Origin: Capsulimonadaceae bacterium
Lineage (GTDB): Bacteria; Armatimonadota; Armatimonadia; Armatimonadales; Capsulimonadaceae
DNA length: 64,000 nucleotides
NCBI GenBank assembly: GCA_965215505.1
Contig: OZ244065.1
Location: 3,232,001 to 3,296,000, forward strand
Direction: 5' to 3'
Shown: positions 40,362 to 64,000 of the stretch, one piece after another
How the letters are laid out: every line of letters begins with the position of its first letter
Position numbering within the stretch: the first letter of the stretch is position 1
The notes under the pieces: model-generated
Database searches by the model: none
Told to the model about the DNA's origin: nothing
The model's input: only the letters and a program-made list of their open reading frames with translations
Made by a program: the position numbers and the translations under genes

Positions 40362-43016
40362 TCAGCGGCTTGGCGTGGCGGGCGGCTCTTCCAGGGCGTA
40401 GGCGGCGGCCTGCTCCGGTGTCATGGCCTGGCCCTCCGCCCAGGCGGCGGCGAAGACGGCGGGCGGGAGCGACCGGTGGGCGTCCTCGATGGCGCGGTGC
40501 AGGTTATCTAGGGCGGATGATTTCTCGTGGAAGCCGGCGGCGTCGTTCAGCCTTTTGCCCGCCCCGAGCAGCCGGGCGGCGTGTTCGGGCAGCCCCCGCC
40601 CGAGCGCGAACCGTCCCAGGATCGCCAGGCCATCACTGACCGTCTGGACGTCGCCCACCTCGGCGGCCGCCTCAAAGACCTCCCGGTAGAGTGACTGCGC
40701 CCGCGCGTAGTCCCCCGTCTCGGCGGCGATCTCCGCCTGGATGGAGTGGGAGAGCGCGGCTCCTCTTCGGTCGCCCAGGGTGCGGAAGATAAGCAGGCTC
40801 TCCTCGCAGGCGGCCTGGGCCGCCTTGAAATCCCCGCGCTCGCGCTCCAGGAACGCGATGTTGGTGAGAGTCGAGGCGACATTGCCTTCCTTTCCCAACT
40901 CCCGCCACAAGGCTTTGGCTTCTAACAGCAGCGGCTCCGCCTGCGCGAAATCCCCCATGAGCGCCGCCAATCCCCCCAGGTTGTTGAGCGAGGAGGCGAT
41001 GCCGCGCCCGTCGCCGACCACGCGCCAGATCGCCAGACTCCGCCGCTGCAACTCGCCCGCGCCTGCCATGTCCCCCACACGGCGCGTCAGGACGGCCAGC
41101 CCGCTGAGTGCCCGCGCCTGCGCGACGGTGCCGCCGTCCCCGTCCAAGCCGGACCGCTCCAGGGCGCATTCCAGGCGTCTCCGCCCTTCGCTCAGGGGGC
41201 CGCGGGTGGCCCAGAAACGCCACAAAGCCCCCGCGATACGCAGCCCGCGCGCGGCGTCCCCCTCTTGCGACTCGTCCCAATCCAGGGCGGCCCGCAGGTT
41301 GTCCTGGTCTTCCCCCAGGCGGTTCAGCCAGAGGGCCTGATCGGGGCCGGTCAGCAGCGGCTCCGCCGACTCGGCCAGGCGCAGGAAGTGGGCGGCGTGG
41401 CGGTCGGCGAGGCTGACCCGCTCGCCCTCCGCGAGCTGCGAGGCGGCGAACTCGCGCAGGGATTCGAGCAGGCGGAAGCGCATCCCGTCGTCGGCGTCCT
41501 CGGAAGTCACCAGCGAGTAGGAACGCAGCCGGCCCAGGGCGTCGAGCGCCTGCGGCTCCTCGCAGACCTCGCGCGCGGCGTCCGCCGTCCATCCGCCCCG
41601 GAACACGGACAAGCGCGCCCAGAACCGCGCAAGGTCCGGCGGCAGCAGGTCGTAGCTCCACGCGATGGCCGCGCGCAGCGTCTGGTGGCGCTCCGTCACG
41701 CCCTTGCGCCGGGACCGCAGCAAGGTGAATCGCTCGGCCAGGCGGCCCTGCATCTGGCCGGGCGTCAGCAGGGATGACCAGGCGGCGGCAAGCTCCAGGG
41801 CCAGCGGGATGCCTTCCAGGCCGCGGCAGACGTCGGCCACGGCCCCGGCGTTGCGGGCGGTGACCTGGAAGTCAGGCCGAGCCGCCCGCGCCCGGTCGGC
41901 GAAGAGCTGGATGCCGGGGAACAGCAGCAGGCTTTCGGGCGAAAGCGGGGGCCTGCCCTGGCCTTCCTGTGCCTGCGGCGTCGGCAGCGGCGACAGCGGG
42001 TATTCGTGTTCCCCCGCGACAAACAGGCGCGCGCGCGACGTGGCGAGGACCGTGAGCGACGGGACGCGCGTCAGCAGGGCGAGCAGGGGCGCGGCGGCCC
42101 CCTCCCCCATCTGTTCCAGGTTGTCCAGGACGAGCAGGGCGGGCGCGGCGCACAGGGCGGCGGCGACGCGGTCCAGCGGCTCGCCCGTGGTCGTGCGCGG
42201 CAGGCCCAGGGCGTCGGCGACGGCCTCGGGGATGAGGCGGGGGTCGGTGAGATCGGCGAGGGCCACGAAATGGACCCGGCCGTCCAGGCGGGCGGCGGCC
42301 TGACGGGCGGCTTCCAGGGCCAGGCGGGTTTTGCCGGTCCCGCCCGGCCCGGTCAGTGTCACCAGGCGGACAGACTCGCCGGCGAGCAGGGCGGCGAGGT
42401 CCGCCCGTTCCCGCTCGCGCCCGAAGAAGCGGGTGAAGGTCATCGGCAGGCGCGGCGGCGCGGCGGCGGGGTCGGGCGAGGCGATGACGGGCGGGGCGGC
42501 GGCCCCCGGCGACTCCGCCGTGTCTCCCGAGGCTTCCTCCCAGGCGGCGGTCAGCCGCTCGCGCTCCTCGATCACCCAGTCGTCATAGAGGCCCGGCAGC
42601 AGTTCGCCCCGGTACAGGCTCCGGGCGGCCACCAGGGCCTCGTGCCGCTTTTCGGGCGACCGGGCGGCGTCCCGGAGGGCGGCCTCAAAGTCGCAGACGT
42701 CGGTGGAAACGGCGGCGGGGTTGAGGCGCACCGCCCCCCGGTCGGCGATCAGCACGCCGCCCGCCGGGGTGCCGGGCGGCTCCAGCAGGCGGCGCAGGAT
42801 GGCGAGGCTCTGCTTGAGGTTGTTGCGCCCCGTTTCCTGGTCGGCCTCGGGCCACAGCAGGTCGGCCAACTCCTCGCGCGGGTGGGTGCGTTGGGGGAAC
42901 AGGGCGAGCCGGGCCAGAAGCAGGGCTGTCTTCCGGGTGCGGAAGCGCGTCACCGTCAGGTCGCCGGACTGGGCGCGCATCCAGCCGAGCATCTCGATCC
43001 GCCAGGGTGTGTTCAT
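40362..43016 (-). CDS. AfsR/SARP-like regulator: wHTH-BTAD, STAND ATPase, TPR
   Basis: LYRGELLPG..DDWV, FFGRERE, GPGGTGKTRL, LVLDNLE, GIPLALELAA, TPR repeats; start ATG 43016. Confidence 0.92.
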   Translation of the reverse strand: MNTPWRIEMLGWMRAQSGDLTVTRFRTRKTALLLARLALFPQRTHPREELADLLWPEADQETGRNNLKQSLAILRRLLEPPGTPAGGVLIADRGAVRLNPAAVSTDVCDFEAALRDAARSPEKRHEALVAARSLYRGELLPGLYDDWVIEERERLTAAWEEASGDTAESPGAAAPPVIASPDPAAAPPRLPMTFTRFFGRERERADLAALLAGESVRLVTLTGPGGTGKTRLALEAARQAAARLDGRVHFVALADLTDPRLIPEAVADALGLPRTTTGEPLDRVAAALCAAPALLVLDNLEQMGEGAAAPLLALLTRVPSLTVLATSRARLFVAGEHEYPLSPLPTPQAQEGQGRPPLSPESLLLFPGIQLFADRARAARPDFQVTARNAGAVADVCRGLEGIPLALELAAAWSSLLTPGQMQGRLAERFTLLRSRRKGVTERHQTLRAAIAWSYDLLPPDLARFWARLSVFRGGWTADAAREVCEEPQALDALGRLRSYSLVTSEDADDGMRFRLLESLREFAASQLAEGERVSLADRHAAHFLRLAESAEPLLTGPDQALWLNRLGEDQDNLRAALDWDESQEGDAARGLRIAGALWRFWATRGPLSEGRRRLECALERSGLDGDGGTVAQARALSGLAVLTRRVGDMAGAGELQRRSLAIWRVVGDGRGIASSLNNLGGLAALMGDFAQAEPLLLEAKALWRELGKEGNVASTLTNIAFLERERGDFKAAQAACEESLLIFRTLGDRRGAALSHSIQAEIAAETGDYARAQSLYREVFEAAAEVGDVQTVSDGLAILGRFALGRGLPEHAARLLGAGKRLNDAAGFHEKSSALDNLHRAIEDAHRSLPPAVFAAAWAEGQAMTPEQAAAYALEEPPATPSR

Positions 43017-43203
43017 GGTTCTTACAACAAAGGGTGCGTGGGATGGTAAGACTTGCTCTTTCCATTGTAACACGAAAGTCAGCGTTTCTCTCTTCCACGC
43101 CCACTTTCCGGTATTGTCACCGGCATTAGCAGACGAAAAAGCCCCCGGCGCGAGGCCAGGGGCGGGATGATGCGGTCCCCGTTTTCGGCGACTTTTTCGG
43201 GCT

Positions 43204-43977
43204 TTAGTGGGCCGCCTTCTTCCGCTTGGCGGCGACCACGACGCCGCCCAGGCCGAGGGCCAGCAGCAGGCCGAACGAAACCGTCGTGGAGGCTTCGGGC
43301 ACGGGACCGGCGGCATTCGTCTTGACGACCACGTTGTCCAAGCCCCAGCTCTCGTTGCTCAGGCTCTCGTCCGGCTGGCCCGTGAAACTCAGGGCCAGGG
43401 CGCTGGAGGCGTCGTTGAACGTGAACGACAGGTGGTAGACTGCGTCCTCAGCATCAGAGCCGAACCCGTTGCCGAAGACGTAGCCCAGCGTCTTCTTTTC
43501 CGCCGCGCCGGTATAAGGGGAGTAAGTGCCCCCCGTCAGGTAGCCCCCGGTCCCGTTGGCACCGCCGAAGGACTGCGTTTCGCCGGCTTGCAGATCATAG
43601 TTCGCGAAGTTTGTGGCGAGGAGCGTGTTGCCGTTTGCCGCGAACGACCACGGATCGGGGGCGCCGCCGAATTCGCCATTGCCGTCCATGGAGTCGATCA
43701 CATAGAGGTCGAAGGTGACGTTGACCGTGCTGTGCGCGGCAAGGCCGGCCAAAGAAAGAGTCGTGGTCTGGTTGCCGAACTGCCCGAGGAACTTGTCGGC
43801 GGCATGCGCGGCCGTGCCGGGCGTGGTGTCCGTGGCACCGCTTGACCACCCGAGGCCGGCACCATTGGTGAAATTGTTGCTGTAAACGGTCGTGTTCTGG
43901 GCCGACGCAGGGTGGGGGGCGGCGAGGCTGACGAGGGCGGCGGCGAGGCCGAGGCCGGAGAGGCGTGAGAAGATCAT
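43204..43977 (-). CDS. Secreted PEP-CTERM-like surface protein
   Basis: Signal peptide; ESWGLDNV; VPEASTTVSFGLLLALGLGG...KRKK. Confidence 0.88.
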   Translation of the reverse strand: MIFSRLSGLGLAAALVSLAAPHPASAQNTTVYSNNFTNGAGLGWSSGATDTTPGTAAHAADKFLGQFGNQTTTLSLAGLAAHSTVNVTFDLYVIDSMDGNGEFGGAPDPWSFAANGNTLLATNFANYDLQAGETQSFGGANGTGGYLTGGTYSPYTGAAEKKTLGYVFGNGFGSDAEDAVYHLSFTFNDASSALALSFTGQPDESLSNESWGLDNVVVKTNAAGPVPEASTTVSFGLLLALGLGGVVVAAKRKKAAH

Positions 43978-44079
43978 TGTGGGCGTGCCTTTCTTAGACG
44001 CGGCGGTCGTTGGACCATCAGAATGTTGGGGACGACAAGAAAGCCCTCGGCTGTGCCCCCCAGGGAGGACGCTAGCATT

Positions 44080-44154
44080 AGGGTTGGCTTTGCCACTTTA
44101 CAAGACCGGAGCGGGGCGGCGACCAAGAACGTGCTCCGACAGGACAGCTTCCCT
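44080..44154 (-). ncRNA. Structured leader RNA, c-di-GMP-II-like, copy 1
   Basis: AGGG/CCCU closing stem, GGAAGC, CGGAGC/GCUCCG stem, loop UUGGU..GCCGC pairing with downstream GUGGC..GCCAA. Confidence 0.6.
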
Positions 44155-44180
44155 GTGCCTGAGTTGATCAGGCAACGGCT

Positions 44181-44215
44181 ATTATACCATGCTGACGTAA
44201 ACACAGCGTAAAACG
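44181..44215 (-). promoter_or_regulatory. Extended -10 plus TTTACG direct repeats, copy 1
   Basis: TTTACG twice at 11-bp period, then TGGTATAAT. Confidence 0.65.
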
Positions 44216-44313
44216 GTATTGTAGCAAAGGCTACAGCAGGAGAAGCGGCGGATGGTGAGACTAAAATCCGCACCGAAAAACCGGCAATTTTCTGGGGCAA
44301 GAGGACACAAAAG

Positions 44314-44342
44314 AAGGCCCAGCCGGCAATGGCTGGGCCTTT
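44314..44342. terminator. Intrinsic terminator
   Basis: aaggcccagcc/ggctgggcctt. Confidence 0.7.
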
Positions 44343-44359
44343 CCGAGCGGGGCGCTTAC

Positions 44360-44654
44360 TCAGACAGTGCTTTTCTTCCGCTCGGCGGCGACCACGAGAA
44401 CGCCCAAAGCCAGCAGCAGGCCGCAGGAGACGGTCGTGGAGGCCTCCGGCGCGGGTGTGGGTGTGCCGTTCAGCGGCGTGATGGTGACGCCCGGTGCCCC
44501 GCTCATCAGGGTGACAGACCCTGACGGGCTGAACCGGAGGTCGAACAAGGAAGCGTCAGCCTGCCCTGGTGCCTGCAAAGCGAGGCTGAAGTCGCTCGGA
44601 TCGGCGCCCGGCGGCGGCAGCAAGGCCGAGGCCCAGAATGCGAGGGGTGATCGT
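44360..44654 (-). pseudogene. Decayed PEP-CTERM gene
   Basis: ACG at the start position, signal remnant ITPRILGLGLAAA out of frame with the APEASTTVSCGLLLALG tail. Confidence 0.7.
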
Positions 44655-44759
44655 GGCGTTAGCCTCTTTCTGCTCCACAGCAGTGCTGTCGGGAGACCGG
44701 CGGTTTCGGGCAACGAAAAAGCCCAAGACGAATGCCCTCCACAGAGGGGCAGTGTAATC

Positions 44760-44833
44760 AGGGACCGGTTTCGCCATCCAACAAGCCGGAGCGGACGGCG
44801 GCCAAGAACATGCTCCGGCAGGACTGCTTCCCT
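44760..44833 (-). ncRNA. Structured leader RNA, c-di-GMP-II-like, copy 2
   Basis: Homologous to copy 1; GCCGGAGC/GCUCCGGC stem; CGCCGU/AUGGCG pseudoknot. Confidence 0.6.
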
Positions 44834-44859
44834 CACGCGTGGATCATCACGCATGGGGC

Positions 44860-44895
44860 AATATACCAGGCCATCGTAAACGTATCGTAAAACGG
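44860..44895 (-). promoter_or_regulatory. Extended -10 plus TTTACG direct repeats, copy 2
   Basis: TTTACG twice at 11-bp period, then TGGTATATT. Confidence 0.65.
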
Positions 44896-45036
44896 TTTTG
44901 TAACTGGAGCAACAACAACGGGCAAAAAAGGGGTTTTTCAGGCCGAATCAGCCCGGAGCATGAAAAACCGGTACGAATAAGGGGGGAGCCAGGGGGCGTC
45001 TTGACAACTGCTCCCGCTTCTGCTAGACTTTGAGTT

Positions 45037-63767: not shown

Positions 63768-63903
63768 GACGACTAATGGCAAACCCGCCGGCTGGACCGG
63801 CCCGCCCTGAGGTGGAGTCGAAAGACGGGGACGCAAAGCTAAAGGGTCTAAGGCAGCACCCCGGCTGGGGAAGAAGACGCTGCTATGACAGCCAAGCCGC
63901 CGC
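63768..63903 (+). ncRNA. c-di-GMP-I (GEMM) riboswitch with insertions
   Basis: GGCAAACC...GUCGAAAGAC GG GGACGCAAAGCU..AGGGUCUAAG...CUAUGACAGCC; candidate ATG at 63994. Confidence 0.82.
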
Positions 63904-64000
63904 ACCGCCTGCGTTATCGGGAGCATTCCTTCCGCCTGGGAGAGTCCCAGACGGAAACACCCAACTAGCAAGGCATATCAGGGGGCAACAACCATGAAGA

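Follow-up and report, generated by a model that had tools for sequence, protein, structure and literature searches.

The 64,000-nucleotide (nt) stretch of DNA analyzed here (hereafter the window; contig OZ244065.1, positions 3,232,001 to 3,296,000, of the Capsulimonadaceae bacterium assembly GCA_965215505.1, phylum Armatimonadota) encodes on its minus strand two homologous RNA elements of ~75 nt each. The elements lie in tandem transcription units that share the same layout, wherein a promoter is followed by a 5' hairpin, the putative aptamer, a leader of ~100 nt with G+C-rich hairpins, and a Shine-Dalgarno sequence of the AGAAAGG type. When aligned over promoter, aptamer, and leader, the two loci exhibit a column identity of 76%. 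Comparative sequence analysis suggests that each element is probably the aptamer of a cis-acting riboswitch from the clan of cyclic di-GMP (c-di-GMP) class II riboswitches (c-di-GMP-II and c-di-GMP-II-GAG), most likely binding c-di-GMP and controlling the downstream gene for a surface or secreted protein. The two elements and the parts of copy 1 are as follows:

44154-44080, minus strand: aptamer copy 1, which reads AGGGAAGCUGUCC...CCAACCCU
44833-44760, minus strand: aptamer copy 2, which reads AGGGAAGCAGUCC...GGUCCCU
44154-44151 with 44083-44080, minus strand: helix P1 of copy 1 (from sequence, model, and pair counts)
44150-44149, minus strand: AA junction of copy 1, followed by the 5' strand of helix P2 (GCUG, 44148-44145) and a UCCU bulge (44144-44141; from sequence, model, and comparison with GAG-type riboswitches)
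44140-44133 with 44112-44104, minus strand: helix P3 of copy 1 (from model and pair counts)
44126-44116 with 44096-44084, minus strand: pseudoknot strands of copy 1 (from model and pair counts)

An earlier note, made from the letters of the window alone, had pointed out two homologous minus-strand strings with stems and a split pseudoknot, and those strings are exact as quoted. A closing stem (AGGG/CCCU), a GGAA, a central stem (CGGAGC/GCUCCG), and a split pseudoknot in which UUGG-UCGCCGC pairs with GUGGCAA-(AG)-CCAA are all present. The compensatory change that the note saw in the pseudoknot is real as well and maps to pair 50-71, which is C-G in one copy and U-A in the other.

Homologs of the two elements were identified elsewhere (genomes and loci are denoted by G and L numbers, respectively), bringing the total to 14 copies, 10 from seven genomes of the family and four from metagenome contigs. 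The aptamer sequences among these number 13, and a single base in the flanks separates the L168 copy from that of G011. In the model alignment of the 13 sequences, the proposed P1, P2, P3, and pseudoknot comprise 27 pairs and 344 cells, 92.2% of which are paired, compared to 30-52% in controls in which the strands were slid by 1-3 columns. The paired fraction is highest in the pseudoknot (96.3%), followed by P3 (95.2%), P1 (92.3%), and P2 (75%). Changes on both sides were detected in five of the 27 pairs. Such changes convert P3 pair 29-57 from A-U to G-C (three sequences), P3 pair 30-56 from G-C to A-U (one sequence), and P1 pair 8-86 from G-C to A-U (one sequence), and in G006 the P1 helix goes from GGG/CCC toward AAG/UUU. 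The conserved core of P2 comprises two pairs (G.U and C-G), which in the main group of sequences extend to AGCAG/UUGUU.

The genome itself (6.18 Mb) contains only the two real copies of the window by BLAST-type and fuzzy core searches, with other matches being coding-like. R1, a covariance model trained on four copies, identified the motif in seven of the 39 genomes of the family, including the genome under study. A second covariance model (R2, whose P1/P2 structure annotation is off by one column and thus was not usable for pairs) identified 10 copies, one of them new, in the same seven genomes among 71 genomes of the order. When 151 genomes sampled from the phylum, which included the genome under study and seven other genomes of the family, were searched with stricter filters, the sole additional hit was G006, and the variant was not found in the 143 genomes from outside of the family. 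A pattern scan of metagenomes returned 15 loci, including four true members (73.6-97.9 bits). Several other candidates were discarded: metagenome loci L162 (17 bits) and L171 (15.8 bits) lack P3, three of five foreign matches from a BLAST search of 101 relatives (G037, G004, and G031) proved spurious on inspection, and weak R2 matches in G041, G052, and G008 (25-27 bits) have no Rfam support and were not counted as members. The match in G008 (L194; G008:C1:2738005-2738068, minus strand; 64 nt; R2 score of 25 bits) joins a 5' end typical of the variant (GGAAGCAGUCCGG) to a tail (AAGUGGCGAAACCGAUCC) with ~10 nt between them. It is without P3 and the loop strand, and is the truncated remnant of a member or else a fortuitous match.

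A covariance-model search of related genomes had been suggested in the earlier note, which also named a mere duplicated untranslated region (UTR) as the alternative to a riboswitch. Such an alternative would be a locally duplicated 5' UTR that has no conserved structure. The window copies are indeed tandem paralogs whose column identity extends to their promoters, as a duplicated leader would be, but the motif also recurs on metagenome contigs and in further genera, where the promoters differ and the genes that follow are not homologous, and it carries compensatory changes. Recurrence in other genomes and metagenome contigs, together with the pairing data, refutes simple duplication, and we assign it a negligible probability. 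Judged by its recurrence with covariation in other genomes, the motif is more than a chance resemblance. Strain contigs that cover the region differ at 4-5 positions, none of which are inside the aptamers in contigs that span the locus; these are too few for a test of constraint.

Members at the edge of the variant's sequence range connect it to the c-di-GMP-II clan. The Rfam model of c-di-GMP-II-GAG (RF03169, clan CL00127) matched four copies over their full length, scoring L159 at 42.8 bits, which is above the cut-off of 40 bits, and G035a, G025b, and G006 at 27.4, 26.5, and 24.8 bits, respectively. Since one member passes the GAG cut-off, the variant, as judged from sequence, is a diverged branch of a known clan and not a new fold. 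It grades into the clan at one end and is restricted to this lineage. Taken together, this is not a new class but a structural variant that is mostly invisible to Rfam. In the genome as a whole, no c-di-GMP-II match was found at an expectation value (E) <= 1 and no c-di-GMP-II-GAG match was found above its cut-off, and the window copies themselves do not reach the gathering cut-off of RF01786 (53.5 bits). Subthreshold RF03169 matches in G018, G005, G030, G009, G001, G035:C408, and the genome under study (position 4612230) were coding-like and were rejected.

Genomes (one per species) were searched with a pattern of the pseudoknot strands (TGGTCGCC ... GGCGAAACC) and a P3-like spacer, which matched at least 120 loci, 80 of which were fetched and scanned. 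The 19 of these that were passed to Rfam included eight c-di-GMP-II-GAG riboswitches (43.9-59.1 bits) and one c-di-GMP-II riboswitch (54.1 bits), and R1, although built from the variant only, aligned these clan loci end to end at 13-29 bits. Among the pattern matches listed (80 scanned), most were chance matches in G+C-rich genomes, and no new member of the variant was found. A sister family within the same order hosts a GAG riboswitch that bears the kink-turn typical of the class (G050, 56.5 bits) and the same tail (AAUGGCGAAACCGG), as well as a near-threshold GAG-type element (G047, 37.9 bits). GAG-type riboswitches that score above the cut-off were detected in none of the 39 genomes of the variant's own family. 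The two sister-family loci (L197 in G050 and L198 in G047) both precede genes for small membrane proteins that share an LxxLLFGWTxxGW-like stretch.

The blocks common to the variant and GAG-type riboswitches are the loop strand UUGGUCGCC and the tail A-G-U-GGCGAAACCGG, which leads straight into the 3' strand of P1. As in RF03169, P1 is followed by A-A-G-C, P3 comprises 8-10 base pairs, the overall length is ~85 nt, and the strand in the P3 loop, (U)UGGUCGCC, pairs with a tail of the form A(G/A)UGGCGA-A-ACCG(G/A) that abuts the 3' strand of P1. The earlier note had stated that the junction bases differ from those of the known class; in fact, the junction and pocket match GAG-type relatives almost letter for letter. 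The similarity is interrupted where the kink-turn would lie. The variant has no tandem G.A pairs and has the UCCU bulge in their place, such that the 5' side reads AGC-AG-UCCU-P3 (AUCCU, UCUU, or UCUCC in four copies) whereas it reads AGC-GUU-GA-P3 in GAG relatives. The 3' side reads (C)UU-GU(U) in the variant and GGA-GCY in GAG relatives, with (U)UGU(U) replacing GCY as the 3' strand of P2. The 3' signature of the kink-turn (GGAG[CU]..A beside P3) is present in none of the 14 variant copies and in all 11 Rfam-positive sequences, and the 5' signature is present in one of 14 variant copies, as a spurious match within P3. These observations bear out the proposal that the elements are a c-di-GMP-II-type variant in which a pyrimidine-rich segment, which we recognize as the UCCU bulge, replaces the GA-rich kink-turn. 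The GAG of the relatives (positions 67-69; UGGCGAGACCG in the Rfam consensus) is also missing from the variant, which has GAA at these positions where class II has GCA; 13 of 14 copies read GGCGAA, and copy 1 reads GGCAAA. No report of a class II variant that lacks the kink-turn was found in the main texts of the literature searched, supplements being outside of that search.

The UCCU bulge (44144-44141 in copy 1 and 44823-44820 in copy 2, minus strand) is complementary to the 5' strand of P1 (AGGG) and could compete with the 3' strand of P1 in the ligand-free state. In G007, the bulge and P1 change jointly (UCUU with AAGG), and G006 does not follow this pattern.

Comparison with c-di-GMP-II (RF01786; structure 3Q3Z as described in PMC13715770) reveals the same three-helix junction with a pseudoknot, control of surface-protein genes, and the pocket bases A13, A61, A69, A70, and G73 at identical spacing. 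The variant differs in its pseudoknot (CGCC/GGCG versus GCAC/GUGC), in position 68, where an A is paired to U rather than a C to G, and in its lack of the kink-turn. In the solved complex, A69 reads the upper guanine of the ligand, A70 intercalates between its two bases, G73 reads the lower guanine, A61 forms the ceiling of the pocket, A13 and a G form its floor, and the first pair of P2 (A14-U60) lines its side (PMC13715770). We mapped the numbering of the structure onto the Rfam consensus based on identical spacing, and the spacing of the A61, A69, A70, and G73 equivalents in the variant is identical to that in class II. A69 is conserved in 14 of 14 copies and both A70 and G73 in 12 of 14, and the equivalents of A13 and A14 are the AA that follows P1, with the exception of L170 (UA) and G007 (AAC). 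Because the pocket spacing and A69 are as in class II, we take c-di-GMP to be the most likely ligand.

The two window copies differ with respect to the pocket. Copy 2 has the consensus tail GGCGAAACCGG and thereby the consensus pocket, with all pocket positions conserved, while its loop strand reads GGCCGCC instead of GGUCGCC and its tail is preceded by GGA instead of CAG or UAA. Copy 1, in contrast, carries GGCAAAGCCAA as the 3' strand of its pseudoknot, with a G at the position of A70, an A at that of G73, and a C-A mismatch in the pseudoknot. The A residues at the positions of G73 and G74 turn two U.G pairs into U-A. The suggestion that copy 2 may be decaying is thus contradicted, since copy 2 has retained the consensus pocket and it is copy 1 that is changed at two ligand-contact positions. 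From its sequence, copy 1 may be either drifting or changed in specificity. Independently, the second copy in G035 (tail GGCGAAUCCAG) has acquired a U at A70 and an A at G73; like copy 1, it retains the fold, and the A that replaces G73 is now predicted to form a Watson-Crick pair with U. A U at the position of A70 is also found in the GAG-type element of G047, the tail of which reads GGCGAAUCCGG.

These deviations raise the possibility that the variant, or a subset of it consisting of copy 1 and the second G035 copy, retains the proposed fold and ancestry but recognizes a different cyclic dinucleotide, or some related nucleotide, in place of c-di-GMP. Rfam separates the GAG and GCG groups from c-di-GMP-II and the variant is most like GAG, no readable report of the ligand of the GAG group was found in the literature searched, both deviant copies are altered at the intercalating A70 and at the G73 that reads the lower guanine, and a single-nucleotide change is reported to shift a class II aptamer toward isomers of cyclic GMP-AMP (cGAMP; PMC13715770). 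Against this, 12 of 14 copies have the A69, A70, and G73 that are seen in the structure with bound c-di-GMP, the surface-protein context is the classic one for c-di-GMP (see the reports cited below), and the two deviant copies disagree at A70 (G versus U). Further, the second G035 copy is followed by a short open reading frame (ORF) with an early stop, which makes drift as likely as a new specificity. We therefore regard a different ligand as unlikely: it is possible, as the earlier note had proposed, but is not indicated for most members. A narrower version, in which a scaffold without a kink-turn is diversifying its ligand and the two deviant copies are class II aptamers switched to another dinucleotide (e.g., cGAMP or a mixed or linear one), is more speculative still and, from the sequences alone, seems rather improbable.

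How a c-di-GMP-binding aptamer of this type might act on the downstream gene can be proposed from the leaders. The fold would be that of an H-type pseudoknot with three helices, namely P1, a short P2, and a P3 with a loop that is paired to the 3' tail, and the pocket would consist of those nucleotides that bind c-di-GMP in the class II complex. The conserved four-nucleotide pyrimidine bulge would take the place of the P2/P3 kink-turn and presumably bends the loop of P3 onto the 3' tail. Without ligand, the 3' strand of P1 would pair with a downstream RGGGC element that precedes a U-rich tract, forming a terminator-like helix; P1 stabilized by ligand would block this helix, resulting in an ON switch. 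Two relatives in the order that bear the kink-turn have plain terminators in which the 5' arm is the 3' strand of P1, which indicates that those relatives are ON switches. In leaders of the variant, the 3' strand of P1 and a UGAC-like linker can pair with a conserved GUCC(A/G)GGGC or GAGGGC, after which a U-rich stretch follows (UUUCUUGU in copy 1 and UUUUUCGUU in copy 2). In copy 1, this yields a long hairpin closed by CCCU with AGGG beside the U-rich tract, the duplex of which (-8.7 kcal/mol) is not above that of shuffled sequences. The downstream hairpins of several leaders fold on their own, and when whole leaders were folded under constraints, two distinct states did not clearly emerge. 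Masking of the Shine-Dalgarno sequence by the 3' strand of P1 was rejected as an alternative mode of control, since none of 12 leaders exceeded shuffles at a level of 0.05. On the basis of these models, a transcriptional ON switch would be the most likely mechanism, with little better than an even chance of being correct.

A number of observations weigh against the interpretation of the elements as c-di-GMP-II-type riboswitches. The window copies were matched at E <= 10 by none of the Rfam families, RF01786, RF03169, and the GCG variant among them, in permissive scans of 43900-45000 (1.1 kb) and 44060-44170 (111 nt), which is in line with the earlier note. The same is true more broadly, with 10 of the 14 copies, both window ones included, having no match to the clan at this threshold (L168 was not scanned and is counted via L030, whose aptamer is identical). 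The variant lacks the kink-turn, a three-nucleotide bulge with tandem G.A pairs that is conserved in the class, and only 75% of the P2 cells are paired. The core of the pseudoknot (CGCC with GGCG, and GG with CC) is invariant and is therefore uninformative on pairing either way. Covariation is thin, with shuffled controls equaling it in 3-26 of 500 cases depending on the measure, and given that the sequences are few and related it is insufficient to make the case alone. Nested minimum free energy folding of leaders and cores was no better than that of shuffles (z-scores of 0.29, -1.03, 1.04, and 0.17), and such insignificant values are expected of a pseudoknot. The switching helix exceeded shuffles in only three of 13 leaders (G025a, G035a, and M170), such that the direction of control is weakly founded. 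Finally, the altered pocket noted above belongs to the copy that precedes the intact gene.

Several of these points would also be expected if the elements were conserved structured leaders that have lost, or never had, the ability to bind a small molecule, with a class II relic serving as an element for stability, processing, or protein binding. The loss of the kink-turn and the weak or absent Rfam scores are compatible with such a relic, as are the patchy distribution among genomes of the family, the position of one copy in front of a pseudogene, the doubtful and perhaps truncated match in G008, and the several further conserved hairpins in the leaders. Yet the unpaired pocket and junction bases (GAAGC and AG-UGGCGAAACCGG) are the most conserved part of the element across genera, which is predicted by ligand contact and not by a role in stability alone, and these bases are fixed while P3 covaries. 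We consequently favor a ligand-binding riboswitch and consider a relic without a ligand to be quite improbable.

The genes and regulatory features that surround the two aptamers are as follows:

43204..43977, minus strand: copy 1 gene, an intact ORF of 257 amino acids (aa) whose product bears a signal peptide and ends in VPEASTTVSFGLLLALGLGGVVVAAKRKKAAH (from the ORF listing)
43995-43988, minus strand: Shine-Dalgarno sequence of the copy 1 gene, AAGAAAGG (from sequence)
44035..44070, minus strand: downstream hairpin of copy 1, GUCCUC...GAGGGC, then UUUCUUGU (from folding; it has a 16-nt loop and was otherwise recognized by eye)
44157..44173, minus strand: 5' hairpin of copy 1, GCCUGA...UCAGGC, at the predicted transcript start (from folding)
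44181..44189, minus strand: extended -10 element of copy 1, TGGTATAAT, conserved between both copies
44196..44212, minus strand: promoter repeats of copy 1, TTTACG-N5-TTTACG with 11-bp spacing, in place of a -35 element; they recur at copy 2, at a third genomic site, and at related loci
44304..44341, minus strand: strong intrinsic terminator (also placed at 44341-44314) with an 11-pair stem (8 G-C) and the tail CTTTTGTGTC, which closes off the copy 2 unit before the promoter of copy 1
44360..44654, minus strand: pseudogene behind copy 2, with ACG at the start position where homologs have ATG (also from its frames)
44725..44748, minus strand: downstream hairpin of copy 2, CCCTCTGTGGAGGG, with the tail CATTCGTCTT (terminator-like scan, listed as 44748-44735)
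44834..44855, minus strand: 5' hairpin of copy 2, CAUGCGUG...CACGCGUG (from folding)
44860..44891, minus strand: promoter of copy 2, with the repeats TTTACG-N5-TTTACG at 44891-44875 and the extended -10 element TGGTATATT at 44868-44860

Genes downstream of the variant encode proteins with signal peptides. The earlier note assigned them to PEP-CTERM proteins that are sorted by an exosortase, which is supported by eye and by a subthreshold match of a homolog and is not supported by the family models. The C-terminus in the window (VPEAST, a hydrophobic stretch, and KRKK) is PEP-CTERM-like, and that of the copy 1 protein is of the exosortase type and nearly identical to that of the homolog in G011. 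The genome encodes three exosortases (PF09721, 162-183 bits). However, neither of the two window ORFs had any match in NCBIfam at E <= 10 or in Pfam at E <= 0.01, PEP-CTERM models (PF07589 and TIGR-type) included, nor are they among the 15 PEP-CTERM matches in the genome at E <= 10. The complete G011 protein (236 aa) ends in VPEASTTVSLGLLLALGLGGTMVAAKRKKAAH and scores 34.1 bits against the PEP-CTERM family NF038129, below the cut-off of 65. BLASTP yielded no alignment between the copy 1 and G011 proteins, and their last ~30 residues are alike by eye. A single small protein family is located behind five copies (G011, L168, L172, L170, and L159), a HAF-repeat protein (99.3 bits) is encoded behind the G007 copy, and the two copies in G025 and the copy in G022 precede proteins with long basic N-terminal leaders. 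Elsewhere, one report places c-di-GMP riboswitches before PEP-CTERM genes in a Methylophaga strain (PMC12530212), and another places class II tandems before surface-anchor genes (PMC9481103).

As the earlier note had recognized, copy 2 fronts a pseudogene. A remnant of a signal peptide is followed, in another frame, by the last third of an NF038129-like protein; this latter stretch matches residues 145-231 of the protein from G011 with 69% identity across 87 aa. Judging from its start position and frames, the pseudogene carries an internal deletion.

The two units share their promoter architecture. The -10 element of copy 1 was not listed in a scan for consensus promoters because it has no -35 match. 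TTTACG-N5-TTTACG located 9 bp upstream of an extended -10 element is found at three sites in the genome, the third of which (G000:C1:5563830, plus strand) drives a 920-aa secreted repeat protein without an aptamer. The same repeats are found upstream of the variant in G011, G022, L172, L170, and L159, and only a diverged first repeat is found in G007. They look like the site of an activator that binds direct repeats, which presumably occupies them in both units, and of a small surface-protein regulon. Immediately 3' of the copy 1 gene is a large regulator-like ORF (40362-43316, minus strand) with AAA_16 and TPR domains. Its N-terminus resembles, by eye, a winged helix and a BTAD domain of the SARP/AfsR type, while Pfam is silent at E <= 0.001. 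Because its start as called falls within the 3' end of the copy 1 gene, the ORF probably begins further in. The product of this ORF is a candidate reader of the promoter repeats.

The 5' hairpins of the two copies occupy the same position and differ in sequence, and a downstream hairpin with a U-rich stretch follows both aptamers, as had been described earlier (in copy 1, the downstream hairpin was recognized by eye and by folding). A scan of the region for terminator-like structures found two, compared to 1.4 expected from shuffles, and the downstream hairpin of copy 1 is a putative terminator on the basis of its predicted fold. Between promoter and P1, L030, L168, L172, L170, and L159 share a longer, conserved 5' hairpin (GUUCGUGAGG...CCUCACGAAC), where the window copies have short, unrelated hairpins.

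The sole riboswitch in the window at Rfam gathering thresholds is a c-di-GMP-I riboswitch (63768-63904, plus strand; 47 bits). This class (RF01051) is a functional analog of the variant with an unrelated fold and occurs in 11 copies in the genome, before genes for secreted proteins. Eight of the 11 are arranged as four tandem pairs before proteins of 600-693 aa, and sites on G000:C1 include 2464509, 597538, 3917774/3917937, 3920257/3920454, 4268279/4268418, and 4270544/4270684. Downstream of the one at 63768-63904 is an ORF of 108 aa whose product, by eye, resembles an FlgM-type anti-sigma factor. Proteins encoded downstream of the class I riboswitches and of the variant had no BLASTP match to each other at 1e-3.

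Collectively, our findings suggest that a class II aptamer may function, or at a minimum be maintained by selection, when a pyrimidine bulge stands in for its kink-turn, and the variant would thus provide a natural experiment on the contribution of the kink-turn to the fold. The two copies with a changed pocket are candidates for altered specificity. Rfam-based pipelines miss most such elements, and this gap in annotation means that the c-di-GMP regulons of this lineage are under-counted. In a group whose recognized riboswitches for this signal have so far been of class I only, the variant would link a cyclic-dinucleotide-type riboswitch to exosortase-type surface proteins.

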